From: a bacterium
GTDB lineage: Bacteria > Aerophobota > Aerophobia > Aerophobales > AE-B3A
Assembly (NCBI GenBank): GCA_046758525.1
Contig: JBHIAL010000001.1
Coordinates: 667 to 64,666 of the forward strand
Length of the DNA: 64,000 bases
Direction of reading: 5' to 3'
Below the pieces are notes generated by a model. That model worked only from the letters and a program-made list of their open reading frames with translations, had not been told where the DNA came from and made no database searches. Below, one piece after another: positions 5,504-21,397 of this stretch. How positions within the stretch are numbered: position 1 is the stretch's first letter; every line of letters starts with the position of its first letter. The translations under genes were made by a program, and so were the position numbers.

Positions 5504-5701
5504 ATGGTAACATTTGAATGTTCTAAGTGTAAATCGTTATGCTTCAGTGAAAAACCAGTAACAACTATTGCCTATAACCATCTTGTTAATGGAGATTATA
5601 TTCCTTATCTGGTTCAGTATATTTGCAGGAATTGTTTTGAGGGGAAGAAGATAGATGCCCGAAATTGGGGATTGCCCACAAGGGAAAGAAATACAAGGTA
5701 A
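5504..5701 (+). CDS. Cys-rich zinc-finger-like small protein
   Basis: CSKCKSLC...CRNC. Confidence 0.3.
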   Translation: MVTFECSKCKSLCFSEKPVTTIAYNHLVNGDYIPYLVQYICRNCFEGKKIDARNWGLPTRERNTR

Positions 5702-5933
5702 TCTTGAGGTCGTGGCGGAAAGGCTGGCAAACTATATAGCTTTCTCCGAAAAGACGATTACCCGTATTGAACATGCCATTGAGTTGTGTACTAAAGAAAC
5801 AAAGGATGGGCTTAAGGAAATAAAAAAGCAAATTGAGGAGAGGAATAAATATAATAGGGTGCTATGGGTTACTATCATTGGTACGGCAACAGGAATAATA
5901 GTAACAAACATTTTCTTCTTGATGGTAAAATGA
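5655..5933 (+). CDS. membrane-anchored hypothetical protein
   Basis: 92 aa with a C-terminal TM helix (VLWVTIIGTATGIIVTNIFFLMV). Confidence 0.3.
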   Translation: MPEIGDCPQGKEIQGNLEVVAERLANYIAFSEKTITRIEHAIELCTKETKDGLKEIKKQIEERNKYNRVLWVTIIGTATGIIVTNIFFLMVK

Positions 5934-5937
5934 TGAA

Positions 5938-6339
5938 ATGTTATTCTTATGCGAAAAATGCGGAAGGATTCGGAAGTTCGGCAAGTGGAGTGAATTACCA
6001 GAGCATTTAATTTTAACTAATGAATTTAAAGCCGTTCCTAAAACAAAGATGACTTGCGATGATTGTAAAGATAAAAAGCTTGGCTTGTCCCGTACCGAAA
6101 TAGTACGGGGCGGGGGCTGTGAAGGACTTAGAGAGGTCAGAAAGCAGGTTGTGAGTATGCGTATCGGAGACTGTCTGGTCGGCGCTTTGCTTCTTGTTTT
6201 GATAATTAGTGTAGTATGGTGCGGTATTGTCTCTTACAAAACATGGGCTGTAATGGAAAAGAGTAAGTGTGTGTGCGATGATAACGGAACGAATCGTGGA
6301 ATTATGCAAAGAGACGGCAATCCAAGCTCTAAAAGATGA
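5938..6339 (+). CDS. zinc-ribbon membrane protein
   Basis: CEKCG...CDDCKDKK and a TM helix. Confidence 0.35.
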   Translation: MLFLCEKCGRIRKFGKWSELPEHLILTNEFKAVPKTKMTCDDCKDKKLGLSRTEIVRGGGCEGLREVRKQVVSMRIGDCLVGALLLVLIISVVWCGIVSYKTWAVMEKSKCVCDDNGTNRGIMQRDGNPSSKR

Positions 6340-6481
6340 TGTGGGCATAAAAGAGGTATTAGACTGTCAGAGGAGTTGGCTTATTGACGAGGCACTTGTG
6401 AGATATGGTACGCAGGCTGAAGCTGCAAAGAAATTAAAAAAGAGCCGTAGGGTTATTAATTATTATTTGAGAGGAAAATAA
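6269..6481 (+). CDS. small HTH DNA-binding protein
   Basis: C-terminal GTQAEAAKKLKKSRRVINYYLRGK resembles a Fis / sigma-region-4-type HTH. Confidence 0.35.
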   Translation: MCAMITERIVELCKETAIQALKDDVGIKEVLDCQRSWLIDEALVRYGTQAEAAKKLKKSRRVINYYLRGK

Positions 6482-6482
6482 A

Positions 6483-7682
6483 ATGGTGGCATCATTCATT
6501 CCTTCAATTTTAGATGAGCTTGATGATGTTGTGATAGCAGCGCCTATTGCAGGACATGTGTTAAGATATGACGGCATGGACTGGAAGAACGCTCAACTTG
6601 CCCATAGCGATTTGTCAGGCTTAGCGAATGATGACCATTCCATCTACACCTTACTTGCAGGCAGGGCTGGTGGACAGACCCTTATTGGCGGTATGGCAGC
6701 CAGCGAAAATCTTACGCTTCAGTCCACATCACATGCCACAAGGGGCAAGATACTCTTTGGTACTTCAGCTTATGACGAGGTAAATAATAGATTAGGTCTT
6801 GGTACGGTTTCACCAGCATCACTGCTTACAGTAGCAGGGAATGCCTCTATAGGCTCAGGATATACAGGTATAGCAGCGCCTGCCAATGGAATGTTGATTG
6901 AAGGTAAAGTTTGGATTGGAACCACATCCCCAACAACAAATTCAGGTGATATGCTTGTAGTACATAGAAGTTCTGCCAATAATCAATTGATAACGCTAAG
7001 AAATACACATGTGGATGGTCTCTCTTCTATAAGATTAGAGGATGAGGCTGGGGCGTTTAAAGGGGATATTGGGTATTATAATAACATAGACAAGATACGG
7101 ATAGGGGGGGCTGGAGTTCCCATGTACTTTGACGGGTCATTAGATTTATTTACTTCCGCTATCCCTGCATCGGAAGCAGACTACACAAAATTATATACAC
7201 GAGATTGGAACGGTCCTGGTACAAATGCGCTATTCATACTATGTGAAGAAAATGTTGCTCATGTTTTTGGTAGCAGTGTAGGCATCGGCACGGCTGCACC
7301 AGATTCTCAAGCAAAAGCAACAATAGCAGGCGGACTTAAAACACAAGCTGATGTAGGTGCGACCCAGTTTAATTGGTTTCCCTATGAAGGCGACTGGAGA
7401 ATCTATTTTCGGTCGCCCGTACAAGTTGATGACGAAATGAAATTTGGGACTACTGGTGTATGGGGAGTTGGCAGCAATGTTGGTATTGGGACCCTTACTC
7501 CAGCCGCATCAGCGCAGCTTGAAATGGTATCTACGTCAAAAGGCTTCTTGCCTCCTCGCATGACGGAAGTACAGCGAGATGCAATATCAAGCCCTGCAGC
7601 AGGACTTGTGGTTTATGTTACTGATGGCACAAATCCAAATAAACTCCACTTTTATAATGGCACGGCATGGGGAGTAGTGTAA
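6483..7682 (+). CDS. fiber-like structural protein with repeated xGIGT(x)P motifs
   Basis: 399 aa. N-terminal HSDLSGLANDDHSIY. Three copies of a motif common in phage tail-fiber repeats: LGLGTVSPASL, VGIGTAAPDSQ, VGIGTLTPAAS. Confidence 0.5.
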   Translation: MVASFIPSILDELDDVVIAAPIAGHVLRYDGMDWKNAQLAHSDLSGLANDDHSIYTLLAGRAGGQTLIGGMAASENLTLQSTSHATRGKILFGTSAYDEVNNRLGLGTVSPASLLTVAGNASIGSGYTGIAAPANGMLIEGKVWIGTTSPTTNSGDMLVVHRSSANNQLITLRNTHVDGLSSIRLEDEAGAFKGDIGYYNNIDKIRIGGAGVPMYFDGSLDLFTSAIPASEADYTKLYTRDWNGPGTNALFILCEENVAHVFGSSVGIGTAAPDSQAKATIAGGLKTQADVGATQFNWFPYEGDWRIYFRSPVQVDDEMKFGTTGVWGVGSNVGIGTLTPAASAQLEMVSTSKGFLPPRMTEVQRDAISSPAAGLVVYVTDGTNPNKLHFYNGTAWGVV

Positions 7683-8053
7683 ATCCCGACGGAACGAATG
7701 AGGTAAAGATTATGATTAAAGTAACAAGACATGAAATTACAAAAGACAAAAATAATAATATTATCAGGGGCGTTATAGGAATTACTTACATCGACACAGT
7801 AACTGGCAAATCTGCATATAGAGACAGGGTGTGGACGGTGGGCAGTCCTGATTCAGATTTCCCCACCGTGCCTACAAAGGCAGAGTTTAGGGCTGCTGTC
7901 AAGTCATGGCTAACTGCTATACCTAAAGATGGTCAATCTATTTTACAAAGTATAAAAGCTTCTATACGAAAAGAAGTAGAAGAATCAATTACGGTGTTTA
8001 AACCAGGAGACCCTGGGTCTATGGTGAATGAAGAAATACAGGAGCCGGTATGA
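7667..8053 (+). CDS. hypothetical protein
   Basis: 128 aa, overlapping the preceding gene by 16 nt. Confidence 0.35.
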   Translation: MGSSVNPDGTNEVKIMIKVTRHEITKDKNNNIIRGVIGITYIDTVTGKSAYRDRVWTVGSPDSDFPTVPTKAEFRAAVKSWLTAIPKDGQSILQSIKASIRKEVEESITVFKPGDPGSMVNEEIQEPV

Positions 8054-8109
8054 GCGAGAATAAGATTAAAGTCAAAGCTGAAACTCCCTTGTGAGGCGGA
8101 AAGTTTGAT

Positions 8110-8301
8110 ATGAAATGTCCTGAGTGTGAGCATGTTAAAACTTGTATTGTAAAGGAATATTTATCTCCTTTAGGCGTTGTGGTTTTTAGGATTCGTGAAT
8201 GTCAAAAATGCAAAACAAAATTTGAGACTACCGAGACAGTAGCATTTTATAATGAACGCAATAAAGGGTTTAAAGGGGTACAAATGCGTTTGCTTTATTA
8301 A
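8110..8301 (+). CDS. zinc-finger small protein
   Basis: CPECEH...CQKCK. Confidence 0.35.
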   Translation: MKCPECEHVKTCIVKEYLSPLGVVVFRIRECQKCKTKFETTETVAFYNERNKGFKGVQMRLLY

Positions 8302-8315
8302 TGGCAGGAAATTAA

Positions 8316-8672
8316 ATGGACAACAACAAGATTAAAGTCAAACTGGAACAGATTAAAAACATCGATAAGGATGGAAAGAGCATTAAAGATAAAGAAGGCA
8401 ATTTGATTTACATCAGGCACGATGCGATTGCCCTATCGCAACTGATAAATGCCGTTGACAGCAAGGTAGTCGCTACTGGCGAATATCCTGCATGGATAGC
8501 GCTTGATGATAAAAGTAGAGAGGCGTTAAAGCAAGATAGGGATGAAATTGAATTGACAGTTGACGAGGCATCCTTTTTGAAGAAACTATTTAGTAATCCC
8601 CAAAATGATAGAGTTACTTTGGGGGTATTCCATGTTAGAACGATTAACGGAATTTTGGAGCAACTAAAATAA
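8316..8672 (+). CDS. hypothetical protein
   Basis: 118 aa. Confidence 0.35.
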   Translation: MDNNKIKVKLEQIKNIDKDGKSIKDKEGNLIYIRHDAIALSQLINAVDSKVVATGEYPAWIALDDKSREALKQDRDEIELTVDEASFLKKLFSNPQNDRVTLGVFHVRTINGILEQLK

Positions 8673-9529
8673 TGCCTTATACATTACTCTTGGCGGTTGG
8701 TTTTGGTTCAACAAAAACAGGGCTTGCTACTGTTGGCTATCAGTTGAAGAACGCTGATGCTACTAATAACGGTACAAGAATTACGGCTGGTATAGTGGAA
8801 GTTGGCAATGGCTACTATCAAGCGTCTGTGTCAATCCCTGATACGCATAGCGGTGGCATTCTCTGGGATACTGGAGAGGCAACGCCAAAGTACGTTTATC
8901 AGGACATTAATCCTGGGGTGGACGAATACACTGATGCAAAGATTTCATCAAGGGCGGTAGGTATGGGAACAGGCGTAAATACCGTTACGATAACCTTAAC
9001 AGAGACAGGCGGGACGCCTGTGATACCAGGTGCAACTGTGTCAGTGAAGAATCAGGCTAATGATACTCTACTTGCAACAGGAACAACAGATGCGAACGGG
9101 CAGGTAGTGTTCATGCTTGATAATGGCACATATTCTGTTGACAAGCAGAAGCTTGGCAGTTACAGCTTCACGAATCCTGAAACCCTTGTTGTTAGTGGCA
9201 ACACCAATCAAAGCTACATCGGCACGCCAATAAGCGTGAGCGCACCTGCACAGCCGAACACGTGCAGAATGTTCATCTGGGCAAGGAATCTTGACGGGAC
9301 ACTTATGACAACGCTCACTGGCAATGTTACAATCATCAAATTGCCCTATACCACGTCAGGCGCTGCTTACCAGAAAGATGACACTATATTTATATTACAT
9401 GCAGATGGTTATTTTTATGTGGACGTAGTTTATGGAGCAACCATTAGTATTTATATACCAGTTCTTGGGGTTGATACCACTCTTGTAGTTCCGTCTCAAA
9501 CTACATACGACCTTGATACCTTAATTTAA
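8672..9529 (+). CDS. structural protein with carboxypeptidase-regulatory-like or Ig-like beta-sandwich domain
   Basis: TVTITLTETGGTPVIPGATVSVKNQANDTLLATGTTDANGQVVFMLDNGTYSV is a typical CarboxypepD_reg-like segment. Confidence 0.4.
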   Translation: MPYTLLLAVGFGSTKTGLATVGYQLKNADATNNGTRITAGIVEVGNGYYQASVSIPDTHSGGILWDTGEATPKYVYQDINPGVDEYTDAKISSRAVGMGTGVNTVTITLTETGGTPVIPGATVSVKNQANDTLLATGTTDANGQVVFMLDNGTYSVDKQKLGSYSFTNPETLVVSGNTNQSYIGTPISVSAPAQPNTCRMFIWARNLDGTLMTTLTGNVTIIKLPYTTSGAAYQKDDTIFILHADGYFYVDVVYGATISIYIPVLGVDTTLVVPSQTTYDLDTLI

Positions 9530-9645
9530 GATAATAGAGGTGATGAATACTATTGCAAAATCATATCTTATATCTGAAAAAGAGAATTCTATCTGTACCA
9601 AGATAAAAAACTACCAAGAATTATTGTTTTAGCATAGGAGCGAAT

Positions 9646-10365
9646 TTGTTGTCTAACAGTATAGTTGATGCTAAAACCATTTCAATTATCCTTCCCACCC
9701 GTAAGCGGGTTAGGAATTTAACACGCCTGATAGATTCTATCATTCAAACAAGTAAATATCCTTCTAACATAGAGATTTGTATCCGTGTTGACCATGACGA
9801 TATGGAATCTGCCTTGGCATTAATTCCTTATTCTGACAAAATAACTATAAAAGTTTGTATTGGCTCCAGGGAAAAATGTTATGGCCATTACTGGAATGAC
9901 GCATGGAGATTAGCCACGGGGGATGTCTTACAAATGAGCGGTGATGATTTTATATACAGAACCAAGGATTGGGATGTTGAGATTCTCAAAGAAATAAATA
10001 AGTTCAATGATAAGATGGTTTTTGTCTATGGTAATGATGGATTTCAGCACGGTAATCTGGGAACTCATTTTTTTATCCATCGTAGATGGGCAGATGCGTT
10101 GGGGGAGTTTGTGCAGATGCACACTAACGTATTTTACCACGACACATGGGCGGATGTTTTGGCAACAAGAATAAATAGAAGAATGTACAGAGATGACCTT
10201 TTCTTTGAGCATGTCCATTGGGTAACTGGTAAAACAGGTAAGGATGTAATTTACGAAACCGCTCAAAAGAATGCAGAATCGGACGCCAGAATATGGGAAG
10301 CAAATTGGCAAGGCCCAGCCATGCAGAGTGATGTCGCCAAATTAAAAAGATTACTGAATGAATAA
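9646..10365 (+). CDS. glycosyltransferase family 2-like
   Basis: TTG start with SD AGGAG. N-terminal ISIILPTRKR resembles the GT2 opening strand. Acidic motifs DHDD and GDD follow. Confidence 0.5.
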   Translation: MLSNSIVDAKTISIILPTRKRVRNLTRLIDSIIQTSKYPSNIEICIRVDHDDMESALALIPYSDKITIKVCIGSREKCYGHYWNDAWRLATGDVLQMSGDDFIYRTKDWDVEILKEINKFNDKMVFVYGNDGFQHGNLGTHFFIHRRWADALGEFVQMHTNVFYHDTWADVLATRINRRMYRDDLFFEHVHWVTGKTGKDVIYETAQKNAESDARIWEANWQGPAMQSDVAKLKRLLNE

Positions 10366-10930
10366 TGTTTTGTCATTATTAATATGTTCCTTAACCAAAA
10401 GGGAATCATCCCTCAGAGAACTTTTATCCTGTTTATCTCCCCAATTGGTAGAGGGAGTGCAGATTCTGGTTAATTCGGATAATGGGAGGAAAGCTGTAGG
10501 GCAAAAAAGGAACGAACTATTAAGAGGCGCAACAGGGAAATATGTTACATTCATAGACGATGACGACCTTGTAAGCGATGATTATGTTTTTCTGATTCTG
10601 GATGCAATCAGGAATGATTGTGATGTTGTTGGCATACATCTTCTTATGACAACCAATGGAATCAAGAATAGCGAATGCAGGACATATCATTCACTCAAAT
10701 ATAAATCATGGTGGGATGAGGAAGACCCAGACAGACCAGGAAGGAGGCGGTATTTCAGGAATCCAAATCATCTGAATCCAGTAAAAAGAGACCTTGCCCT
10801 TGCTACACAGTTTATTGAAATAGATTATGGAGAAGACCACGATTATAGCAAAAGGCTTCTGCCTTTATTGAAAACAGAGGTAAATATAAACGAACCAATC
10901 TATTACTATCAGGTTAAGGGCGTGGAGTAA
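10358..10930 (+). CDS. glycosyltransferase family 2-like
   Basis: YVTFIDDDDLVSDDY is a DXD-type motif. There is an 8-nt overlap with the upstream gene. Confidence 0.5.
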   Translation: MNNVLSLLICSLTKRESSLRELLSCLSPQLVEGVQILVNSDNGRKAVGQKRNELLRGATGKYVTFIDDDDLVSDDYVFLILDAIRNDCDVVGIHLLMTTNGIKNSECRTYHSLKYKSWWDEEDPDRPGRRRYFRNPNHLNPVKRDLALATQFIEIDYGEDHDYSKRLLPLLKTEVNINEPIYYYQVKGVE

Positions 10931-10940
10931 AGGAGTATTT

Positions 10941-11630
10941 GTGGAAGTAATGATTAACCAATCGGCAGGGCTTGGTGATATTTTCTTCTGCCAGAAAATT
11001 GCTATGAAACTTATGGAACTTGGTTATGAAGTTTATTGGCCTGTTATTGAAGAATATAGATATATAAGTAATTATATACATAATGGTGTTATATGGAGAA
11101 TGAGCGAAAAAAAACGTAATGAAATTTATAAATTAGACCTTAGCCATTCTACCAATTATTTTAGGTTCAAGCACAATCAACAGCTTAATGATAATATCAT
11201 GCAAGCTAAATACAAGTATGCAAACAGTCAATTCTCATTTGCAATTGGTGGGTGGGAAGATTGGCAGGATTATCTTAAAATAACAAGAAATTCCGAAGAG
11301 GAGAAAGAACTCGAAGATATTATCCTGAACGGCGTCCCCGACAAGTTTGCGCTTGTGTGCAACCATTTTGCAACTAACTATCTCACTCTCAATAAGAGTA
11401 TAGAATCTGACTTACCAACAGTGGAGATTATCAAGATTCCTAATGTGCCTATTTTTAGTTGGTGCGGAATTATTGAGAAGGCCTCCGAAATAAGAATACC
11501 AGATTCAAGTTTTCCATATCTTGTTGAGGTACTGAATACAACAGATAACCTCTATCTTTATAATAGAAACTACGAATCTAATATACGAACCAAGCCTATA
11601 TGGAAGAAGGGATGGACATTCGTGGAATGA
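10941..11630 (+). CDS. hypothetical protein, possible GT-B/GT9-like transferase
   Basis: AGLGDIFF resembles the GLGD signature of heptosyltransferase-like enzymes. The evidence is weak. Confidence 0.3.
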   Translation: MEVMINQSAGLGDIFFCQKIAMKLMELGYEVYWPVIEEYRYISNYIHNGVIWRMSEKKRNEIYKLDLSHSTNYFRFKHNQQLNDNIMQAKYKYANSQFSFAIGGWEDWQDYLKITRNSEEEKELEDIILNGVPDKFALVCNHFATNYLTLNKSIESDLPTVEIIKIPNVPIFSWCGIIEKASEIRIPDSSFPYLVEVLNTTDNLYLYNRNYESNIRTKPIWKKGWTFVE

Positions 11631-12568
11631 CATTTCTTATCACAGGAATATCTGGCTTTGTTGGTCCCTATTTAGCGAGTCATCTATTAGAGAGGGGACA
11701 TATCGTGTATGGGTTGGCTCACACTAAAACAGACAAGTGTGCGAAAGGTGTGAAATATCTACATGGGGATTTACGTAATATAAATGATTTAGTATCTTTA
11801 CAATCATACAATTTTGCTGGTGTTTTTCATCTTGCAGCATTAACTCACCCACCAACATCATTCAAGGAACCCAGATTGTATTTTGAAACAAATGCACTTG
11901 GGACTGTGAATTTATGCGAAGTCCTTGGAGAAAATAGTATAATTATGCAGTGCAGTAGTCCAGAAGTCTATGGGGTGTGCCCACAAAGAGAAATATTTGA
12001 GTCATTCCCAATGAACCCTGTTTCTCCCTATGCTGTTTCAAAGGCAGCATCTGATTTATATATTCTTGAGCGGACAAAAAGTAAAAGATTAAAGGCATTC
12101 ATTACACGGGCTGGGTCGCATACTGGAGCAGGCAGGCCTTCTTGTTATTCTATTTCTTCAGATGCTGCCCAAATAATAAGAATTAAAAGAGGCTTGCAGA
12201 AGCCTGTACTCAGGGTAGGAAATATTAATTCCCAGAGGGCTGTGATGGATGTTCGAGATGTGGTTGCAGCTTATTATAAATTAATGATTAAATATATACT
12301 GGGGGGAATAAGGAATGGAGATATTTTTCATATAAGTGGGCATAATTTACAGACAATAGAGTATTATATTGACCTTATGATGAATTTGGCAAATGTTAAA
12401 GCGGAAAAGGTAGCTGATAAAAATCTCGTGCGAAGGATAGATATTCCTGTACAGATATTAAACAGTGATAAAACTCGCTCTATTATTTCGTGGAAGCCAA
12501 AAATTCCTATTGAGGAAACTCTTGGAGAGCTACTTGATTATTGGGAGAAGATTATAGATGGGAATTAA
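11627..12568 (+). CDS. GDP-mannose 4,6-dehydratase / GDP-4-keto-6-deoxymannose reductase family (Gmd/Rmd-like extended SDR)
   Basis: Rossmann motif TGISGFVG. Catalytic YAVSK (YxxxK). LRVGNINSQRAVMDVRDVV matches the Gmd-family LRxGNLxAxRDWGxAxDYV block. Translationally coupled to the upstream gene by an ATGA overlap. Confidence 0.65.
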   Translation: MTFLITGISGFVGPYLASHLLERGHIVYGLAHTKTDKCAKGVKYLHGDLRNINDLVSLQSYNFAGVFHLAALTHPPTSFKEPRLYFETNALGTVNLCEVLGENSIIMQCSSPEVYGVCPQREIFESFPMNPVSPYAVSKAASDLYILERTKSKRLKAFITRAGSHTGAGRPSCYSISSDAAQIIRIKRGLQKPVLRVGNINSQRAVMDVRDVVAAYYKLMIKYILGGIRNGDIFHISGHNLQTIEYYIDLMMNLANVKAEKVADKNLVRRIDIPVQILNSDKTRSIISWKPKIPIEETLGELLDYWEKIIDGN

Positions 12569-13610
12569 AGATATTGACTCACATAAGCTGAATTACCATC
12601 CTGAAAGAGTAGCCCAATGGAAGAGTACGGGTTTTTGTTATCCCCTTCATATGGAAGTTGGAATAACTAATGAGTGCAATCACAGGTGTAAACAATGCAC
12701 GCTGGATTGGATAAATCATGGGCAGGATTCTCTTGATGCCCAGATTCTTGTTGAGACATTAAAGGAAGCAAGCAGTCTTGGAGTTAAATCTGTTTACTTT
12801 GCGGGGGAGGGTGAGCCAACTCTTCACAGAGCTTTGGGTTTGTTTGCAAGAACAGCGCATGATTTGGGAATAAAAGTGGCGCTTTCAACCAATGGGTCTT
12901 GTTTATCTACCTTAAAGGATACATTACCCTACTTATCGTGGTTAAGGTTTAGTGTTGATGCCGCAACCGCAGAAACATTCTCAAAAATCCATCGAGTAGA
13001 ACTTTCTGAATTTGATAAGGTTATTTCCAATATAAAGCAATGCGTAGATGTGGTTAAAAATGAGGATTATAAAGTACAGATTGGTATTCAGTCCCTCCTA
13101 ATGCCAGAAAATATAAATGAGATTGAGCCACTTGCCAACATTGCCAAGAATATAGGGGCGCATAATTTCCAAGTGAAACCTGCTCATTGCCACCCTAAAA
13201 GCTCTTATCAGATAACACCCCGCCAGCATTTACAAGATGGGATGCAACAAAGGCTTGAGAAGTTAAACAGTAATACTTTTACAACAATAGTAAGGATTAG
13301 AAGCTTGGAAAGGTTAGGTCAACCCAGAACTTATAATGAATGTCATGCGTTTAACTTCTATTGTCTCATTGATGCTTGTGGAAATTTGTCCCCTTGTAAT
13401 GTTTTTTATGGAAAAGATAATTATATATTTGGTAATATTTATAAGGACAGTCTTCAAGAGATTTGGTCAAGCGACAAGAAGAGAATAATAATAAAGCAAA
13501 TAGCTGAGCTTAAACATTCACTGTGTAAAGATTACAGATGCAGACAGGATGTAATGAATAGGTATCTTGAAAGAGTGAAGAATCCAGAGATTAACGATGA
13601 GTTTATTTAG
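12558..13610 (+). CDS. radical SAM enzyme with C-terminal SPASM/twitch-like Cys cluster
   Basis: CNHRCKQC is a Cx3Cx2C motif. GEGEP is a SAM-binding-like motif. The C-terminal CHAFNFYCLIDACGNLSPC supplies auxiliary-cluster cysteines. Confidence 0.7.
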   Translation: MGIKDIDSHKLNYHPERVAQWKSTGFCYPLHMEVGITNECNHRCKQCTLDWINHGQDSLDAQILVETLKEASSLGVKSVYFAGEGEPTLHRALGLFARTAHDLGIKVALSTNGSCLSTLKDTLPYLSWLRFSVDAATAETFSKIHRVELSEFDKVISNIKQCVDVVKNEDYKVQIGIQSLLMPENINEIEPLANIAKNIGAHNFQVKPAHCHPKSSYQITPRQHLQDGMQQRLEKLNSNTFTTIVRIRSLERLGQPRTYNECHAFNFYCLIDACGNLSPCNVFYGKDNYIFGNIYKDSLQEIWSSDKKRIIIKQIAELKHSLCKDYRCRQDVMNRYLERVKNPEINDEFI

Positions 13611-13621
13611 GAGTAGAATGA

Positions 13622-14590
13622 ATGATTAAAAAGACGGTCTTGGTATGTGGAGCGGGGGGTTTTATAGGCAATCATCTTGTAAAGCGCCTGAAAAAAGACG
13701 GTTATTGGGTAAGGGGAGTGGATTTGAAATACCCAGAATATTCAAAAACTGAAGCGGATAATTTTGTTGTTGGTGATTTAACAGATATTACTTTTTGTCG
13801 AGGGATAATGGATAGACAATTTGATGAGGTATATAACCTCGCTGCTGATATGGGGGGAGCTGAGTATGTATTTACAGGCGATAACGATGCTAATATTATG
13901 TCCAATTCAGTAATGATTAATCTAAACATACTGAATACTTGTTATAAGAGAAACATAAAGCGCCTTTTTTATTCCTCTTCAGCGTGCTGCTATGCAGAAC
14001 ACAACCAGTTAGACCCACATAATCCAAAATGTTCTGAAGATTCTGCCTATCCTGCTAATCCTGACTCTGCCTATGGTTGGGAAAAACTGTTTAGTGAGCG
14101 TCTTTATAATGCCCATCATAGAAATTGTGGTATGGAAGTTAGGATTGGTCGCTATCATAATGTGTTTGGTCCCGAATGTACTTGGTTTGGAGGGAAGGAA
14201 AAAGCACCTGCTGCACTATGTAGGAAAGTGGCTGAAGTTGAATCTGGAGGAGGAATAGAGATATTTGGGGATGGGAAACAAACAAGGTCTTTTCTCTACA
14301 TTGATGAGTGCATTGAAGGTACTATCAGGCTTATGAAGTCGGATTATAATGAACCCATTAACATAGGCTCGGATGAAATGATAACAATAGACGAATTAGC
14401 CAAAAAGATAATGACTATTGCCAAGAAGGAATTAAAAATCAGGCATATAGATGGGCCTCAAGGGGTTAGGGGCAGAAACTCAGATAATACACTGATTAAA
14501 AAGGTCTTAGGCTGGGCTCCATCTGCTTCTTTGGATGAGGGGCTTAGAGTAACATATGACTGGATTTCAAAAAGGAGGGATATAACATGA
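13622..14590 (+). CDS. GDP-mannose 3,5-epimerase homologue (GME family)
   Basis: Block-by-block resemblance to plant GDP-mannose 3',5'-epimerase as I recall it, not an alignment I ran: GAGGFIGNHL; NLAADMGG; SSACCYAE; DSAYGWEKL; RIGRYHNVFGP; GGKEKAPAALCRK; GDGKQTRSF.YIDECIEG; NIGSDEMITI; GPQGVRGRNSDNTLIKKVLGWAP; EGLRVTYDWI. Confidence 0.75.
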   Translation: MIKKTVLVCGAGGFIGNHLVKRLKKDGYWVRGVDLKYPEYSKTEADNFVVGDLTDITFCRGIMDRQFDEVYNLAADMGGAEYVFTGDNDANIMSNSVMINLNILNTCYKRNIKRLFYSSSACCYAEHNQLDPHNPKCSEDSAYPANPDSAYGWEKLFSERLYNAHHRNCGMEVRIGRYHNVFGPECTWFGGKEKAPAALCRKVAEVESGGGIEIFGDGKQTRSFLYIDECIEGTIRLMKSDYNEPINIGSDEMITIDELAKKIMTIAKKELKIRHIDGPQGVRGRNSDNTLIKKVLGWAPSASLDEGLRVTYDWISKRRDIT

Positions 14591-16725
14591 CAGTCGAACA
14601 TACTATTATAATACCTCTGACCACTAACCTTTGTAACTTGAGAGAAACCATAAAGAGTGTAAATGAATACTCAGAAGACCACGAGATTCTGGTTATTGTA
14701 GATGATAGACAAAAGGTAGAATCAGAAATTGTAAAAACTATGGCATCTGTAGTTTGCAAAAAATCTACAATTGGGGAGGCTCTTAATGCTTGCATAGATT
14801 CAGCCAATGGAAAATACATTACAATCTTGAAGGATAATGCACTTGTTTCTCCTAATTGGCTAAATAAACTAAAAAGAACCTTTTTGCTCCCATCTTACAG
14901 ACCAGTTACAATAGCTGCGCCAATTCTGAGTCATACAGTATTTAGTGTCCAACAATGTGAATTCAGTCTGACATCTGGTAATTATATAAAAGCCTTGGAA
15001 GAGCGTAAGTTTAATTATGGATACACTCTTGCAAATCTGGTTTCGGATGTGTGTATTATGTTTGAGAGGACAAATGGGGTGCGCTTTAATGGGACGCTAA
15101 ATTCAGGTGAGATATTTGACGTGGTAGTAAGGAACACGCTCTCTGGAAATATATGTGCAATTAATAAGGGCGTTTTCATATTTGATAAGAGTCCAATAAC
15201 AAAACTTGATAATCTATCAAAGAGTATTATTGCTGTAGCCAAGATACATAACAGGTATCTCACAAGACCCCAAACAATACTGGGGGTAATAAGAACCAAA
15301 ATAACAAATGATTTTGACGCTGAAATATTCAAAATGGTATTGGATAAAACTAAGAGTCTTGTTGATAAAATACTTGTTCTCAATGAGGGACAGGAGTATC
15401 CTTTTGACCTGATAGGAGATATAAATAAACTGGATGTGTCTGAATCAATACATAACGAGAAAGCTTCCGAAGCAATAATCGACAGAATTGAAGAACTTAA
15501 TTGCGACTGGATTTTACACCTGAATGAAAAAGAAGTTTTAGAGGAGTCTATTACAAGGAAGGATTTGGACAGACTTATTTATAACCCTAACCCCCTTATT
15601 CATGGATATGTTTTTCAGGATTATCTATTTGAGGGGACGGACAATAACTACACAGCAAGTCAAGATTCCACCAAGACTGTAGTCCCCAATCTATTCAGAT
15701 ATATTCCAAATAGTAAGCATAGAAATTTTGCTATGCTCTTAAAGATGACTGAAGACTCTTTATGTGTATCAAGCATGAGATATAAACAGTATATAGAGCC
15801 AGCTAAAAATAAACCTGTCTTTACAACGAAGATGTGGAATGCAAATAATAGAATTGACATATGTACTATTATGAAAAATGAGGAGGCCAAATTATTCTGG
15901 TACATGCACAGACATTTTGGCTTTGCCAACAATGTTATACTTATTGACACAGGTTCTACGGACAGCTCCATAGAGTTGGCGAGATTGTTAGGAGCTATTG
16001 TTTATGAAGAAAGGGACGGCTCTAAAGATTTTGCACGAGCAAGGAATACCTATCTCAATAAATCATCTTCAGAATGGATTTTTCATGTTGATTTGGATGA
16101 ATATTGCAGTGATTTGACAGGCATAAGGAAATTGACTGAAGGTACTTGTGATAACTGGTTATTCAAGATTCAAAACAGGCGGAAGGATGGCTCCACTCCT
16201 ACAAGCGAAACCATCAGGCTGTTTCGTAATAAAGAAGGATTATCTTATAAGGGTATAATACATGAAATACTTGATACGCCGAAACCCCCTGCATATTCGC
16301 CCATAATTCTAATCAATGAAGGATTCTTGGAAGATGATGATGTCGTTGCAAGGAAGGTAAAAATGTATCTGGATATGTGCATGATGAGAATCAAACAAGA
16401 CCCAGAGGATGTTCAGGCATTATACTCAGTTGGGATTCATTTGGCAGATGATAATAGATATGAGCTTGCAATAGCAATGCTCAACAAGGCGGTAAGATTG
16501 ATGAGTGAATGGCACTTGCCAAAGAAGGAACTGGCAGTTACATATCTGCATTTTGGTAAACAATTATATAAAGAGCTTGTTGATATGTTGCCTGCCCACC
16601 ATCCTGACAGACTGGAATATGTAAAAGTATTTGAGTTTCTAAACAACGCATTCAAACCAAGAATAATAGATGTTGTCAGTATTACAAAAGATATATCTGA
16701 CGAGGATATAATGAAGATTTTATAA
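14587..16725 (+). CDS. multidomain glycosyltransferase: N-terminal GT-like domain, central GT2 domain, C-terminal TPR-like repeats
   Basis: 712 aa. ICTIMKNEE...LIDTGSTD...DLDEY is a GT2 signature. The C-terminus is helical and repeat-like (ALYSVGIHLADDNRYELAIAMLNKAV). ATGA overlap with the epimerase gene. Confidence 0.55.
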   Translation: MTVEHTIIIPLTTNLCNLRETIKSVNEYSEDHEILVIVDDRQKVESEIVKTMASVVCKKSTIGEALNACIDSANGKYITILKDNALVSPNWLNKLKRTFLLPSYRPVTIAAPILSHTVFSVQQCEFSLTSGNYIKALEERKFNYGYTLANLVSDVCIMFERTNGVRFNGTLNSGEIFDVVVRNTLSGNICAINKGVFIFDKSPITKLDNLSKSIIAVAKIHNRYLTRPQTILGVIRTKITNDFDAEIFKMVLDKTKSLVDKILVLNEGQEYPFDLIGDINKLDVSESIHNEKASEAIIDRIEELNCDWILHLNEKEVLEESITRKDLDRLIYNPNPLIHGYVFQDYLFEGTDNNYTASQDSTKTVVPNLFRYIPNSKHRNFAMLLKMTEDSLCVSSMRYKQYIEPAKNKPVFTTKMWNANNRIDICTIMKNEEAKLFWYMHRHFGFANNVILIDTGSTDSSIELARLLGAIVYEERDGSKDFARARNTYLNKSSSEWIFHVDLDEYCSDLTGIRKLTEGTCDNWLFKIQNRRKDGSTPTSETIRLFRNKEGLSYKGIIHEILDTPKPPAYSPIILINEGFLEDDDVVARKVKMYLDMCMMRIKQDPEDVQALYSVGIHLADDNRYELAIAMLNKAVRLMSEWHLPKKELAVTYLHFGKQLYKELVDMLPAHHPDRLEYVKVFEFLNNAFKPRIIDVVSITKDISDEDIMKIL

Positions 16726-17003
16726 ACAATCGGAGAAATTGCTTGACATTTTAATTATTTGTGTTTTTATTATGTGTAAGTGAGTATGCTAACGCAGTTT
16801 ACAATTGAAAAGATTAAAAGGGTTGTACAAGAGGAGGAGTCAAGAATCACTAACAACGATTTCTGTGGTTCTATAAGTATTAAACTGAATTTTCTTCATG
16901 GTTTGGTAAGGACGGTCGAAACATCCATAAACCAACATGAGCAACTCAAGAACTAAAATTTAAAATATATTAAAAATCTCATTAGCTTTACCAAAGCCTG
17001 AGA

Positions 17004-17046
17004 TGGGTAATTAATCTACCTGTCTTGGGCTTTTTTATTGGAATAA
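17004..17046 (+). terminator. possible rho-independent terminator (G·U-containing stem plus T tract)
   Basis: AGCCUGAGAUGGG pairs with CCUGUCUUGGGCU as RNA in a 13-bp stem with 4 wobble pairs, followed by UUUUUAUU. This is weak and lies immediately before the portal ATG. Confidence 0.25.
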
Positions 17047-17047
17047 A

Positions 17048-18358
17048 ATGCAAATAACACAAAAAATAAGAAACTTTCTTAGAACAAAAGCCAATAGAGC
17101 ATTGGGGCTTATGATTTATCCTTGGATGGACAATAGCGGGATAAAGATGGATTGGCGAACAAAGGATTATATAGATTTGTATGGTAAATCCGATTTTTCC
17201 AATGCTGTGGTTCATGGGACAGTGAAAGAGCTTGCATTGGCTATTGCCAATTGCGATTTGAAATTTTATCGAAAGGTAAGAAAGAAAAAATTAAAGAAAT
17301 TGACCCGTACTCACCCCCTTGTAGATTTATTCTGGAATGTTAATCCTGTTACAACCAGATTTGATTTTTGGGAATCTCTTGTTGTCTATTTGCAATTGGC
17401 AGGCGAAGCCCCTGTAGCATTAGAGCGACTGAATAAGTTAGACCAACCTAAAGAACTATGGACTTTAAGACCCGATTTTATTCGTGTAATTCCAGACGCT
17501 AAAAATTTTGTTAGGGGGTATCTGTATGAGACTGGTGTGGGACGGGTTGGCTACCTCCCCAACGAATTAATATTTTTTAAGCATTTTAGCCCAACAGAAA
17601 CATGGAGAGGGCAGTCCCCCTATGCTGCTGCAAGACAAGAACTTATATCTGAATATTATAGAAGTAAATATAATATCGAATTCTTCAAACAAGGCGCAAG
17701 TCCTTCTGGAGTATTCTCCACAGATAGGACATTAGACAATGATACGTTTAAGAGACTTCAGAAAGAGCTTGAGATGGCTTACTCAGGCGTTAATAAGGCG
17801 CACAGACCAATGTTACTTGAAAGCGGATTGCAATGGACTCGAATAGGAGTGAGCCCAAAGGATGGTGATTTTATACAACAACACGCCTTGAACAATGAAG
17901 CAATTGCAGGTGTTGTGAATGTGCCCCCTCAATTTGCCTTTGGGGGCAATTCATTCAGATACGGAAATGTTCAAACCACAAAGGAACAAGCCAAGATGTT
18001 TTGGGGGATTACGATAAAGCCCCTAATCAGAAAAATAGAGGAGTATTTAAATACTTTCCTTGTAAAGAGATATGGTAATGATTTGATTGCCAAGTTTGAT
18101 TTAAGTGAAATTGACGCTATCAACGATACAAATGTTGAAAAGAGTATTGTTGCAAGAAGAATGGTAGAAATAGGTATCTGGACTCCAAATGAAGCAAGAA
18201 AGATATTGTGGAATATGGAAGAAACAGAAGACGGAAATGGCGATACAAGATATGTACCAGGTAATTTAATTGATGCCAATTCGGAATCGCAGATACCTGA
18301 TGAACCTGATAATGGTAAACTTTTGGAGAGGCACGAAAATGAACGAATTTATATATAA
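17048..18358 (+). CDS. portal protein
   Basis: 436 aa. Called mainly by synteny (portal, protease, then MCP) and size. Confidence 0.55.
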   Translation: MQITQKIRNFLRTKANRALGLMIYPWMDNSGIKMDWRTKDYIDLYGKSDFSNAVVHGTVKELALAIANCDLKFYRKVRKKKLKKLTRTHPLVDLFWNVNPVTTRFDFWESLVVYLQLAGEAPVALERLNKLDQPKELWTLRPDFIRVIPDAKNFVRGYLYETGVGRVGYLPNELIFFKHFSPTETWRGQSPYAAARQELISEYYRSKYNIEFFKQGASPSGVFSTDRTLDNDTFKRLQKELEMAYSGVNKAHRPMLLESGLQWTRIGVSPKDGDFIQQHALNNEAIAGVVNVPPQFAFGGNSFRYGNVQTTKEQAKMFWGITIKPLIRKIEEYLNTFLVKRYGNDLIAKFDLSEIDAINDTNVEKSIVARRMVEIGIWTPNEARKILWNMEETEDGNGDTRYVPGNLIDANSESQIPDEPDNGKLLERHENERIYI

Positions 18359-19487
18359 AACAGTTGATTCTAAGATTAAAGATATAGATGAAAGAAACAG
18401 GACATTTTTAGCCATAGCCTCCACCGAAGATAAAGATAGGGATGGAGATATTATTCAACAAAGTGGCTGGGATTTGAGGAACTATGAAAAGAATCCTGTT
18501 GTACTTTGGGCGCACAGACACACAGATTTACCTATAGCTAAAGCAGAAAAGATAAAGGTTGAGGATAATAAGCTTGTCTTTAAACCGAAATTTGCAACGT
18601 ATGAGGAATACCCATTTGCAGATACAGTTTTCAAGCTATACAAAGGGGGCTTTATTAATTCATTTTCGGTTGGCTTTCAGCCAAAGGAATCTGAGCCTTT
18701 AGATGAGGATAACCTTTTTAGTGGAAGAAGAATAATTAAACAGGAATTGCTCGAAATTTCTGGTTTGCCCTTACCTTCCAATCCAAGCGCAAGGATTAGG
18801 GAAGCGCTTTCAAAGGGAATTATAAGTGAGGATGACCACAAGATTTATAATGATACAATGAATTTAATAATTGAAGAATGTATGGAAGATTTTGAGGGTA
18901 AGGGAACTGGGAATGGGAATATAACAGATGACTCTTGGGACGGCAGTAAATCAAGATTTTCAGTTCAACAGCTTTTAGCTTCTGTACCCCCAGCGATTGC
19001 AAGGGCAGCGAGGGCACGAGCAAGGCGGGAGGATAGAGAGATTGCGGACATCCCCAAAGATTGGTTAAAACTTCCTCATCACGAACCTAATGGGGCACTT
19101 AATGCAAATGGCGTGAGGGCTGCTAAAGGTAGATTAAATCAAGCAGATTTACCTGAAGGTGTTAGTAGAAGTGCGGTTATGGCTCATCTCGATATGCACA
19201 GTGGACAAGTTGAAAGATGGAGAGAAAGACGTAGTGTTGAGGATGAGGAAACCAAGCACACTCCCATTGAAATTATTTCATTTAATACATTTGAAGCTGC
19301 CCTGAAAGCTGTGAAGGCAGACGTAGACCTATACAAGAACAAGAATGAATTCAACAGTTCCGATAAAGAAAGACTAAATTGGATGGCTAATGAGCTTAAG
19401 AAGACATCCAATACATTATTCTCTTATGCGAATGAAGAAAAGCTAAGAGATTTAATCAAGCGTGCAGAGGCATGTTTGAAAGATTAG
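18339..19487 (+). CDS. prohead protease (HK97 / S78 family) with C-terminal coiled-coil (scaffold-like) extension
   Basis: NPVVLWAHRHTDLPIAKAE matches the conserved pvLwqHd..piG block of HK97-type prohead proteases. The start is taken at MNEF (18339); the track start 18270 overlaps the portal. Confidence 0.65.
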   Translation: MNEFIYKTVDSKIKDIDERNRTFLAIASTEDKDRDGDIIQQSGWDLRNYEKNPVVLWAHRHTDLPIAKAEKIKVEDNKLVFKPKFATYEEYPFADTVFKLYKGGFINSFSVGFQPKESEPLDEDNLFSGRRIIKQELLEISGLPLPSNPSARIREALSKGIISEDDHKIYNDTMNLIIEECMEDFEGKGTGNGNITDDSWDGSKSRFSVQQLLASVPPAIARAARARARREDREIADIPKDWLKLPHHEPNGALNANGVRAAKGRLNQADLPEGVSRSAVMAHLDMHSGQVERWRERRSVEDEETKHTPIEIISFNTFEAALKAVKADVDLYKNKNEFNSSDKERLNWMANELKKTSNTLFSYANEEKLRDLIKRAEACLKD

Positions 19488-19513
19488 TGCACATTTTTTA
19501 AGGAGTTTAGTAA

Positions 19514-20779
19514 ATGACTGAACCAAAAGAGCCACAGGAAAAAGACTTAGCTACACAACTCGAAGAAAAGGTTTCAGAGTTGGAGGCCAAAAAGAAAGAA
19601 GAAGTTGAAAGGAAAATTAAGGAGAAGGAGGATGCTGTAAAAATAGCTGAAGGCATGAAGGAATTCAAGGGCTTAAATGATAAGCTAACCAAAGAACTTG
19701 AGGCATTGAAGGAGCAGCAAGGTAATATAAAGGAAAGTGTTGAAAGGGATAGGGAAGAAAGAAAGCTTCGTTTCGACACTACTAAAGAGGTCAATGAGAG
19801 TGCCCCAAATAGTAACAAAGGGAGCGAGTTTAGTTTTGCTCGATTTTATAACGCTATAGCACATAAGAACATGAATCTTGCTCCTTACGAGTTTAAGGCT
19901 TTGGGGGAAAGCACAGGTTCGGGGGGTGGTTTTATAGTACCAGAGGAATACCTTGGCGATTTAAGGGATAGAATTACAGCGCAGTCAGTTGTTAGAGGAA
20001 TGGGACCTACTGTCTATCCTATGGTATCTGATACTCTGTTAGTACCAAAGATAACAGGCGGGGCTACAGCCGTTTGGGTGGGGGAGAATGCACAAATTAC
20101 TGAAAGCCAAAACACATTTGGACAACTTCAGTTAATAGCAAAGTTGTTGGCAGCCCTTGTCAAAGTAAGTAATCAATTGATTTCTGATTCTAATCCTGCT
20201 GTTGAGACTGCTGTTAGAAAGGATACGGTAAAGGTTCTTGCGCTTGCCGAGGATATTGCATTCTTGGGAGGCTCTGGTTCGGCTAACCAACCAACAGGTA
20301 TCATAAATACTACTGGTGTAGCAGAGGTTACTCTTGGGGCAAATGGGGCAACGCCTACATTTGATAATATTTATGACACACTCTATCAGGTGGAGTTGGC
20401 TAATGGCGTAGCAAGCGGTTGGGTTATGCACCCAAGAACAAAAAACACATTGACAAAGATTAAGGATTCCAATGGTCAATACATCTACAATGTAAGTCCA
20501 AGTATCAAGGAGCCAGATACACTTGTAGGTTTGCCTGTAAAACTAACCACCCAAGTTCCAATCAATCTTACTGTGGGCAGTTCTTCAGACTGTTCTTATG
20601 TAATCTGCGCCCAATGGGATGAGGCTGTGATTGGGGAAAGAGCAGGCATTGAGTTTGCTGCTGATACATCTGGGACTGCTTTTGAGTTTTACCAGACTTG
20701 GATTAGGGCAATTGAAAGAATTGATTTTGGGTTAAGGACACCAGAAGTGTTCTGTAAAATGACTGGCGTAAGACCTTAA
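19514..20779 (+). CDS. major capsid protein, HK97 fold, with N-terminal delta/scaffold domain
   Basis: The N-terminal ~110 aa are a charged coiled coil (EEKVSELEAKKKEEVERKIKEKEDAVK). The rest has HK97-MCP size and composition. It follows the protease and is followed by a strong terminator. Confidence 0.7.
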   Translation: MTEPKEPQEKDLATQLEEKVSELEAKKKEEVERKIKEKEDAVKIAEGMKEFKGLNDKLTKELEALKEQQGNIKESVERDREERKLRFDTTKEVNESAPNSNKGSEFSFARFYNAIAHKNMNLAPYEFKALGESTGSGGGFIVPEEYLGDLRDRITAQSVVRGMGPTVYPMVSDTLLVPKITGGATAVWVGENAQITESQNTFGQLQLIAKLLAALVKVSNQLISDSNPAVETAVRKDTVKVLALAEDIAFLGGSGSANQPTGIINTTGVAEVTLGANGATPTFDNIYDTLYQVELANGVASGWVMHPRTKNTLTKIKDSNGQYIYNVSPSIKEPDTLVGLPVKLTTQVPINLTVGSSSDCSYVICAQWDEAVIGERAGIEFAADTSGTAFEFYQTWIRAIERIDFGLRTPEVFCKMTGVRP

Positions 20780-20802
20780 GTAGTGAGATTTATATAAATT
20801 TT

Positions 20803-20840
20803 GAAGCCCTGCTCTTGTCAGGGTGGGGCTTCTCTTTATA
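20803..20840 (+). terminator. rho-independent terminator after major capsid gene
   Basis: Sequence gaagCCCTGctcttgtCAGGGtggggcttc. The inner stem is CCCTG/CAGGG and the outer stem is GAAG/CTTC, followed by TCTCTTTAT. Confidence 0.5.
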
Positions 20841-20852
20841 GGAGAGTTAAAC

Positions 20853-21257: not shown

Positions 21258-21271
21258 AAATAGGGACATTT

Positions 21272-21348: not shown

Positions 21349-21397
21349 CTTTTCTTGGGATTGGATGAACAAAATGCTTAAACATTATGAGAATAAG

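Follow-up and report, generated by a model that had tools for sequence, protein, structure and literature searches.

The 64,000 nucleotides considered here (the window: positions 667 to 64,666 of the forward strand of contig JBHIAL010000001.1, in the assembly GCA_046758525.1 assigned to the Aerophobota lineage AE-B3A) belong to the genome of a tailed phage without close sequenced relative, and at 9646-16725 they hold a cassette of seven genes that very probably remodels a host GDP-sugar by way of a radical S-adenosylmethionine (radical-SAM) enzyme and transfers it to an acceptor, possibly virion proteins. Judged by their recurrence elsewhere, six of the seven are a mobile module common to unrelated phages, a feature overlooked in the first reading of this DNA. 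That the cassette is a self-contained glycosylation module spreading among phages, with virion proteins as its acceptor, is the leading reading, one that we place just short of probable. The seven genes, in order, and the two features that follow them are:

9646..10365, + strand: GT2a, a soluble GT-A (family 2) glycosyltransferase of 239 aa with a TTG start and an AGGAG ribosome-binding site
10358..10930, + strand: GT2b, a short soluble GT-A glycosyltransferase of 190 aa with a DDDD motif
10941..11630, + strand: ORF3, a compact GT-B protein of 229 aa with a predicted GT9-like (heptosyltransferase-like) fold
11600..12568, + strand: SDR1, an extended short-chain dehydrogenase/reductase (SDR) placed in the Rmd / GDP-heptose 4,6-dehydratase clade; true start perhaps 11612 or 11627
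12558..13610, + strand: the radical-SAM enzyme, 350 aa, with a C-terminal auxiliary-cluster (SPASM/Twitch-type) domain, of an uncharacterised family
13622..14590, + strand: an orthologue of GDP-mannose 3,5-epimerase (GME), an extended SDR of 322 aa
14587..16725, + strand: a 712-aa protein with an N-terminal GT2 domain, a second GT2 domain (residues ~423-581) of GmaR/SunS/ThuS type and a C-terminal helical TPR-like region
16780-16956, + strand: a small open reading frame (ORF) of 56-58 aa between the 712-aa gene and the portal gene, with no family assigned and of uncertain cassette membership
16993-17033, + strand: a terminator-like hairpin of 17 pairs with a T tract, which would end the cassette transcription unit just 5' of the portal gene

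The original prediction, made from the letters of the window, had described seven co-oriented and tightly packed genes for the tailoring and transfer of nucleotide sugars, and both halves of that description stand: all seven are + strand ORFs within 9646-16725, and the domain calls for the glycosyltransferases (GTs), the SDRs and GME agree with it, both SDRs matching sugar-nucleotide enzymes and not unrelated families. GT2a and GT2b overlap by 8 nt; GT2b and ORF3 are 10 nt apart; ORF3 and SDR1 overlap by 31 nt if SDR1 starts at 11600 (alternative ATGs are at 11612, the public gene call of 318 aa, and at 11627, which would give an ATGA overlap with ORF3); SDR1 overlaps the radical-SAM gene by 11 nt; an 11-nt gap separates the latter from GME, and GME is joined to the 712-aa gene by an ATGA overlap of 4 nt. 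AGGAG-type ribosome-binding sites are present 5' of GT2a, ORF3, GME and the 712-aa gene. None of the seven proteins has a membrane-spanning segment (the highest 19-residue Kyte-Doolittle mean is at most 1.38), so that the parts of a Gtr-type O-antigen seroconversion system (GtrA/GtrB/GtrC), namely a membrane flippase, a membrane-bound bactoprenol GT and a polytopic serotype-specific GT, are absent from the cassette. The window covers all but ~13 kb of a 76.9-kb contig, the identical radical-SAM protein being present on a metagenome-assembled genome (MAG) contig of 76,917 bp at NCBI, and statements below on genes that are absent refer to the window ORFs scanned; with that scope, no sugar-1-phosphate nucleotidyltransferase or kinase is encoded by the phage. 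Of the terminator-like sites in 3000-21500, the hairpin and one 3' of the major capsid gene are the two longest. The small ORF has a counterpart of 54 aa at the same position in a related phage, L006 (17683-17847), with the stretch GS(I/V)S(I/V)xL common to both.

The order GT2a, GT2b, ORF3, SDR1, radical-SAM, GME is repeated in at least five further lineages of uncultured phages. In L006, whose portal is 64% identical to that of the window phage, the six are kept together with a 714-aa GT2 protein, and four extra genes lie between radical-SAM and GME (11050-14505), one of them for a B12-binding radical-SAM protein, of a class that includes C-methyltransferases, and two for proteins of ~300 aa without known family. 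L005 and L122 represent an unrelated Mu-F/portal_3 siphovirus of ~67 kb, which was met with in 155 index blocks of the assembly collection; its module has the major capsid gene on one side and the tail-terminator gene on the other, and a sulfotransferase-like gene comes after it, to which L005 adds an APS kinase gene (12019-13085 for the two). In L009 and L010 the order is protease, decoration protein, capsid, two further GTs, module, sulfotransferase and Neck1, and L010 has, at 9458-10087 and 11467-12141, a sulfotransferase-like gene and, just under the cut-off, an RMNT_CmcI-like gene (rhamnosyl O-methyltransferase family). Altogether three lineages have the module immediately 3' of the major capsid gene; L005/L122 and L010, where it is in the interval from capsid to neck or tail terminator, are among them. 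A 204-kb contig, L007, also carries it. The sulfotransferase, APS kinase and methyltransferase genes of these sister modules suggest sulfated or methylated variants of the glycan.

Within the module SDR1 lies directly upstream of the radical-SAM gene, which it abuts or overlaps in all ~20 viral loci examined (those with a radical-SAM protein at least 43% identical and with upstream sequence present), and the pair is taken to be the conserved, virus-specific core. A marine viral group with the pair also has HldE-like, aminotransferase and formyltransferase genes, and in the podovirus MW202801 a distant radical-SAM and GT cluster lies 3' of the capsid gene. Two other observations belong here. 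One is a domain of the ADP-ribosylating exotoxin family (PF03496) encoded at 1647-2267 of L122, an L005-type variant, between the genes for the Mu-F-like head protein and for scaffold and capsid. The other is a ~20-kb run of sugar genes (~1-20300) around the SDR1-radical-SAM pair on the 48.5-kb contig L121, with UDP-GlcNAc 2-epimerase, DegT aminotransferase, B12 radical-SAM, GT1/GT2/GT8/GT9-like genes and several methyltransferases; 21 contigs carry the radical-SAM protein of L121.

What does the radical-SAM enzyme do? The Radical_SAM model of Pfam is matched at 52.8 bits (cut-off 29.5), and the CX3CX2C motif is intact, its cysteines (C40, C44 and C47) being invariant in 31 homologues. The SPASM model is matched at 35.4 bits (cut-off 21.5), with a sequence match to BtrN spanning the same region, and only four auxiliary cysteines (C262, C280, C323 and C328) are invariant in those homologues; SPASM domains have about seven for two clusters, and Twitch domains about four for one. 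The enzyme was compared with the curated families of named radical-SAM enzymes (W-cofactor maturase, viperin, MoaA, PqqE, BlsE and others): among the 25 NCBIfam models listed of 49 matched, all were under their cut-offs, the best being TIGR04317 at 104.6 bits against 380. Viperin-like function (70 bits against 180) and MoaA-like function (56 against 284) were both set aside. By phmmer BtrN and BlsE are the best matches, at 1e-5 to 1e-4, with DesII not among the matches at E<=0.001; in a fold search the nearest solved structures are DesII and BlsE, DesII being the sole radical-SAM enzyme in the list that acts on an NDP-sugar. DesII catalyses radical deamination or dehydrogenation of TDP-sugars (PMC11434129). 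The likeness drawn to the desosamine pathway lies in the succession of enzymes, first an SDR 4,6-dehydratase and then a radical-SAM enzyme with an NDP-sugar as its substrate; the differences are that a DesI-type aminotransferase is lacking in the cassette, though there is one in the marine relative L008, that the nucleotide is of TDP type there and GDP type here, and that the cassette enzyme has an auxiliary-cluster domain.

The family is a large one, with 365 metagenomic homologues at E<=1e-10 and at least 510 cellular homologues of 36-45% identity in DPANN archaea, methanogens, Desulfobacterales, Lachnospiraceae, Omnitrophota and Planctomycetota. Of 80 cellular loci just one has an SDR1 neighbour, and GME is lacking; because the cellular homologues are without these partners, the phage pathway is not to be read directly from cellular context. 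In L004 a cellular homologue is set amid Wzm/Wzt, GmhA, HldE and SDRs, and in L090 with HAD and NTP-transferase genes, a split transketolase, an HldE-like gene and a second SPASM radical-SAM; split transketolase, an HldE-like kinase/nucleotidyltransferase and SDRs thus recur in settings that look like an unnamed conserved nucleotide-sugar (perhaps nucleotide-heptose) pathway in anaerobes. A set of transketolase, kinase and nucleotidyltransferase genes resembling those of L090 and L004 is present in cyanophage S-SM2. Literature searches found nothing relevant that joins radical-SAM SPASM enzymes to GDP-mannose, or that brings phage radical-SAM, glycosyltransferase, GDP-mannose and capsid together.

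The partner of this enzyme, SDR1, matches PF16363 (GDP_Man_Dehyd) at 2.6e-45, and its best PDB match is 7us5, the Campylobacter jejuni GDP-D-glycero-D-manno-heptose 4,6-dehydratase (3.6e-43), followed by structures of Rmd (2pk3 at 2.3e-39, 6x3b at 1e-33); canonical GMDs in the PDB are reached only at ~1e-15. Its SSPEVYG and YAVSK align with SSSEVYG and YSISK of 7us5 (the Ser-x-Glu and YxxxK catalytic motifs). The earlier assignment to the Gmd/Rmd family was thus well chosen, with the qualification that SDR1 as Gmd proper was rejected (64.5 bits against a TIGR01472 cut-off of 415); indeed both SDRs are far under the curated equivalog cut-offs for canonical GMD or Fcl. By its matches SDR1 belongs in the Rmd / GDP-heptose 4,6-dehydratase clade and is predicted to be either a GDP-sugar 4,6-dehydratase or a 4-keto reductase, two activities that sequence cannot separate.

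The identity of the second SDR as GME, already proposed in the original prediction, is unambiguous: over residues 6-318 it matches Arabidopsis GME (PDB 2c59) at 1.5e-96 (327 bits), the next-best family, UDP-GlcA decarboxylase, coming at 6.5e-29, and GAGGFIG, SSAC(C)Y, YGxEK (YGWEK) and GGxEKAPAA (GGKEKAPAA) are kept opposite the plant motifs. In the Arabidopsis enzyme the corresponding features are the NAD-binding GxxGxxG, the Ser/Tyr/Lys triad and the Cys/Lys acid-base pair for epimerisation. Like SDR1, it is matched by the GDP_Man_Dehyd/Epimerase domain models. Conversion of GDP-D-mannose to GDP-L-galactose and GDP-L-gulose is the predicted activity. One phage record has a GME match of 80-90% identity which is outside the 30 matches listed and is presumably partial; a full cassette in that record is unlikely because no phage record has a close radical-SAM homologue.

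Transfer would be the business of five glycosyltransferase domains recognised by homology or fold, namely GT2a, GT2b, the GT9-like GT-B protein ORF3 and the two GT2 domains of the 712-aa protein. GT2a matches the Pfam model Glycos_transf_2 at 27.2 bits (cut-off 23.3) and the glycosyltransferase family phrog_14945 at 3.6e-32, and it has syntenic orthologues of 33-75% identity in L005, L006, L007, L009, L010, L122 and L123. GT2b matches the same Pfam model at 2.1e-7 and phrog_14775 at 1.1e-35. In L123 the two are fused in frame as a protein of 451 aa with two GT2 matches, and in Actinoplanes phage phiAsp2 their relatives adjoin sequenced structural proteins. ORF3 had no match in Pfam (E<=0.01), with a sequence match to Glyco_transf_9 also absent, nor in NCBIfam, PHROG or PDB sequences. 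Its AlphaFold model (pLDDT 91) has the GT9 heptosyltransferases of lipopolysaccharide (LPS) synthesis as closest folds, and it is only via structure prediction that its place as a GT-B, GT9-like glycosyltransferase is supported; the predicted fold agrees with its earlier description as a possible GLGD-motif transferase. The known GT9 heptosyltransferases WaaC, WaaF and TibC are longer, at ~320-380 aa against 229 aa; TibC is a glycosyltransferase that heptosylates a protein adhesin. Invariant in ORF3 and its 33 metagenomic homologues are an N-terminal Q.AG(L/F)GDIFF and a C-terminal I(R/S)I.D(S/T)S. Two peptide patterns found no relatives in 185,579 species genomes, a search that very divergent members could escape, and the family has been met with only in viral and metagenomic sequence. 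In L010 ORF3 is fused in frame to SDR1.

The 712-aa protein has Pfam GT2 matches in two stretches. For its residues ~381-641 the only PDB sequence matches are GmaR (5.2e-14), ThuS (7msk, 9e-9) and SunS (3.9e-6), with the DxD motifs aligned (VDLDE against IDADE). GmaR is the O-GlcNAc transferase of Listeria flagellin, and ThuS and SunS are S/O-glycosyltransferases of glycocins. All four have a GT-A domain with a helical TPR-like region behind it, and the DxD is conserved; the extra N-terminal GT2 domain is peculiar to the window protein, and the protein or peptide acceptor that is known for the other three is here conjectural. The resemblance is limited to the GT-A domain and the start of the helical region, and the protein is no member of the SunS family TIGR04195 (5.5e-10, 38.7 bits against a cut-off of 350). 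Of the earlier label, GT2-TPR, the first part is secure and the second weak, TPR being reached through a MamA match (E=0.0075) and through the SunS/ThuS alignment running into residues ~640. The orthologue in L006 is 57% identical and in the same position.

How might these activities be combined? A manno-configured GDP-sugar, GDP-mannose or GDP-heptose, would be drawn from the host pool. SDR1 and the radical-SAM enzyme would act as a coupled pair, modelled on the logic of DesIV and DesII, with SDR1 making or reducing a 4-keto intermediate and the radical-SAM enzyme oxidising, dehydrating or epimerising an unactivated carbon by radical chemistry of DesII/BtrN kind. GME would independently supply an L-series epimer of GDP-L-galactose or L-gulose type, and soluble transferases would build a short hetero-oligosaccharide on phage structural proteins made at the same time, for which in the window/L006 lineage the GmaR/SunS-like domain with its TPR-like tail could be the priming protein glycosyltransferase. 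Sister modules have a sulfotransferase (with APS kinase in L005) or a methyltransferase in place of the 712-aa-type gene, which suggests lineage-specific decoration of a surface glycan, and the likely benefit would be a masked or stabilised virion surface or altered adhesion. The order of steps and the sugar product are conjecture, and this extends to the products named in the original prediction, GDP-L-galactose/L-gulose and 6-deoxyhexose. Hints of heptose-type chemistry, none of them decisive, come from the best relative of SDR1, from the GT9-like fold of ORF3 and from the heptose genes near cellular and marine viral radical-SAM homologues; GME argues for hexose rather than heptose.

And what would the acceptor be? 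Virion proteins are favoured because the only PDB relatives of the second GT2 domain are protein or peptide glycosyltransferases; because the module follows the capsid gene in three lineages, the placement in MW202801 and phiAsp2 being similar; and because a cassette without membrane component is found in a virulent-looking genome, that appearance coming from replication genes of its own and from the lack of an integrase among the genes found in the 64-kb window. The same features tell against attachment to a glycan of the host envelope, whereby the soluble transferases would attach the tailored sugar, on the cytoplasmic side, to LPS core or O-units, to capsule or to precursors of teichoic acid, with superinfection exclusion, or progeny not being trapped on debris, as examples of its effect: flippase, polymerase, ligase and any Gtr-type or other membrane component are absent from the cassette, and the search of cellular genomes gave no member of the ORF3 family, an unexpected outcome had it been borrowed from host LPS pathways. 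To be set beside this are the LPS heptosyltransferases as nearest folds of ORF3, the polysaccharide and nucleotide-sugar clusters in which cellular radical-SAM homologues are found (L004 and L090) and the module of L123, which is outside the structural region beside small early-type ORFs and a Cas4-like nuclease gene. The GME clusters of cyanomyoviruses have moreover been read in the literature as serving cell-wall synthesis or modification (PMC12801897). A host-glycan acceptor is a serious contender that we nevertheless consider unlikely.

The last two of these points also weigh against virion proteins as the acceptor, and there are others that do so. GT2 and GT9 enzymes mostly use lipid-linked or polysaccharide acceptors, and since GT9 heptosyltransferases are soluble or peripheral, lack of transmembrane helices is compatible with LPS or undecaprenyl-pyrophosphate-linked glycan targets. 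The GmaR/SunS-like gene is only in the window/L006 lineage and not in other carriers of the module. In the fold search the scores of the peptide maturases SkfB and SuiB come close behind those of DesII and BlsE. As to location, the original prediction had put the cassette inside the morphogenesis module; it does lie between TerL and portal, ~6.6 kb downstream of TerL, but the gap is an accessory hotspot with many small ORFs and an HNH gene, the hairpin sets the cassette off from the portal-capsid operon, and in L123 the neighbours are early-type genes.

Closeness to TerL could be thought of as favouring a quite different substrate, the phage DNA, with sugar on a hypermodified hydroxymethylated base as in T4 glucosyl-hmC or in C5-MT/5mYOX/GT pathways: hypermodification of DNA by phage GT-A and GT-B enzymes in partnership with sugar epimerases is documented, and genes of such GTs can adjoin those of terminases (bioRxiv 10.1101/2023.12.21.572611). 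The defining partners of the known DNA-glycan pathways are, according to the same source, hydroxymethylase, 5mYOX and C5-methyltransferase; the scanned window ORFs gave neither a thymidylate-synthase-like hydroxymethylase nor a TET/JBP-type dioxygenase nor a C5-methyltransferase, ~13 kb of the contig being outside the window, and the one DNA methylase there is of N6/N4 type. A second PHROG match of GT2a is labelled 'DNA methyltransferase', a label that traces to Pas34 of phiAsp2, whose own note is of a putative O-methyltransferase fused to a GT, near structural genes. Five transferase domains, and variants with sulfotransferase or methyltransferase, fit a surface glycan better, so that the original dismissal of DNA modification was sound and glycosylation of DNA is very unlikely. 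Less likely again is a system for a ribosomally synthesized and post-translationally modified peptide of glycocin-like kind, with the radical-SAM enzyme and the SunS-like transferase modifying and glycosylating a small phage-encoded peptide. SunS and ThuS being glycocin S-glycosyltransferases, the conserved ORF of 54-58 aa 3' of the transferase gene was a natural candidate substrate. It was thought an unlikely one, having a single cysteine and not the nested-disulfide pattern of glycocins; it is also absent from the L005 and L010 modules, and the radical-SAM gene is locked to an SDR and not to a peptide gene in the ~20 viral loci, with cellular relatives in nucleotide-sugar clusters. 

The proposal of attachment to virion proteins can be put in its most specific form: an uncharacterised auxiliary-cluster radical-SAM enzyme, locked to an SDR like Rmd or GDP-heptose dehydratase and active alongside GME, would make a rare deoxy- or epimerised GDP-hexose or GDP-heptose that five transferase domains, a miniature virus-only GT9-like enzyme among them, attach to virion proteins, all in a mobile, virus-specific module of tailed phages. 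It is offered tentatively and with considerable doubt.

The belief that no GME-containing cassette was known in a tailed phage has to be given up. GME orthologues of 56-61% identity over at least 97% of the length are present (tblastn) in dozens of cultured cyanomyovirus records, and in Synechococcus phage S-SCSM1 the gene, annotated as GDP-mannose-3',5'-epimerase, is inside a cluster with GMD, GDP-fucose synthase and multiple GTs; in cyanophages S-SM2, S-T4 and Sf-CH8 an ORF3-like gene is within ~2 kb of GME. The cyanomyovirus clusters (S-SCSM1 genes 121-135 and S-SM2 genes 191-204) are like the cassette in having a GME orthologue, several GTs and GDP-mannose-derived sugars; they differ in having GMD and GDP-fucose synthase without the radical-SAM/SDR1 pair, and in being in accessory regions of T4-like genomes and not in the head module. 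The cassette is accordingly not the first of its kind in a tailed phage to contain GME; it is a variant of phage-encoded glycosylation. Phage-encoded GTs of mycobacteriophages are reported to act on capsid and tail-tube subunits (Freeman et al. 2023, as cited in PMC12619734), the class of acceptor proposed here; the tail tube of the window phage has a Ser/Thr-rich C-terminus. The hosts there are actinobacterial and the glycosylation is demonstrated, whereas here it is predicted from genes. The mycobacteriophage systems are not known to include radical-SAM or GME sugar-tailoring genes. The capsid of chlorovirus PBCV-1 is also glycosylated (PMC7019647); virus-encoded GMD/GMER and soluble multi-domain GT-A enzymes reportedly build the capsid glycan without host machinery, so that both the synthesis of GDP-mannose-derived sugars and soluble multi-domain glycosyltransferases are virus-encoded, as is proposed for the cassette; it is a eukaryotic giant virus that is not known to have GME, a radical-SAM or a GT9-like enzyme, and its proteins show no sequence relationship to those of the cassette. 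The novelty here lies in the predicted mobile six-gene module, an SDR/radical-SAM pair without characterised relative and a putative GT9-like family found only in viral and metagenomic sequence.

The phage itself stands apart: megablast of the cassette against 50,697 phage records gave zero matches, and its portal is at most 31% identical to that in any phage record. The landmarks around the cassette are:

1483-3021, + strand: TerL
6483-7682, + strand: 33-residue tail-fibre PHROG match (E=1.4e-4) and a precomputed PTL_trimer hit
8672-9529: CarboxypepD_reg match of 31.2 bits, below the cut-off of 32.3
17048-18358, + strand: portal
18270-19487, + strand: S78-type protease
19514-20779, + strand: major capsid protein
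20823-21257: 144-aa product with a Ser/Thr-rich C-terminus
22808-23812, + strand: tail tube, with a Ser/Thr-rich C-terminus

A head completion protein and large tail genes are also on the + strand. The terms 'fiber-like' and 'Ig-like' formerly applied to the upstream genes lean on the weak matches just listed, and neither L005 nor L006 has a counterpart of the upstream 399-aa and 285-aa genes; the search for a conserved acceptor candidate adjoining the module found none. Amid the fibre-like genes, at 8110-8301 (+), is one for a 63-aa protein with an NrdR-like zinc ribbon (PF22811, 8.4e-8, above cut-off). After TerL, at 3194-6481 (+), small ORFs are dense, with an HNH_3 endonuclease, zinc-ribbon or Cys-rich proteins and two small hydrophobic proteins, and this stretch looks like an accessory-gene hotspot rather than core morphogenesis.

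From ~47 kb the - strand carries ribonucleotide reductase, primase, SbcCD-like proteins, RecA, RuvC, a DnaB-like helicase and a family-A polymerase fused to a domain like uracil-DNA glycosylase; GC skew changes sign at ~48 kb, at the switch of gene orientation. In the reductase large subunit (47076-49076, -) the barrel domain is matched in two stretches, followed by a C-terminal TSCPD domain, and in the polymerase (58140-60359, -) the N-terminal domain of the uracil-DNA-glycosylase superfamily is fused to 3'-5' exonuclease and polymerase domains. Ten small ORFs on the replication side had no matches in PHROG. The N6/N4 DNA methylase (44297-46441, +, 714 aa) is matched by Pfam in two stretches, with a LAGLIDADG_3 match at ~469-520 that comes after the methylase matches of the N-terminal part and before a weak methyltransferase match at the C-terminus, which suggests an intein or an inserted endonuclease.

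Phage DNA glucosylation, seroconversion, the capsid glycans of mycobacteriophages and the unexplored sugar clusters of cyanophages are known in outline, and to these the variants of the module add an O-methyltransferase-like gene, a gene for a B12-type radical-SAM or one for a sulfotransferase, the last accompanied by APS kinase in L005. Should the virion be the acceptor, phages would bear surface glycans far more widely, and of richer chemistry, than the examples from actinophages suggest, with adsorption, environmental persistence and immune recognition affected; the most specific form of the proposal, if true, would give the first radical-SAM-dependent nucleotide-sugar pathway tied to virion glycosylation, and the sulfated or methylated sister variants would point to phage particles of anoxic habitats having a glycan coat that diversifies. 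If it is the host envelope, a new kind of surface remodelling during infection would be at hand. In both cases the SDR-radical-SAM pair offers a tractable way to find new nucleotide-sugar chemistry.

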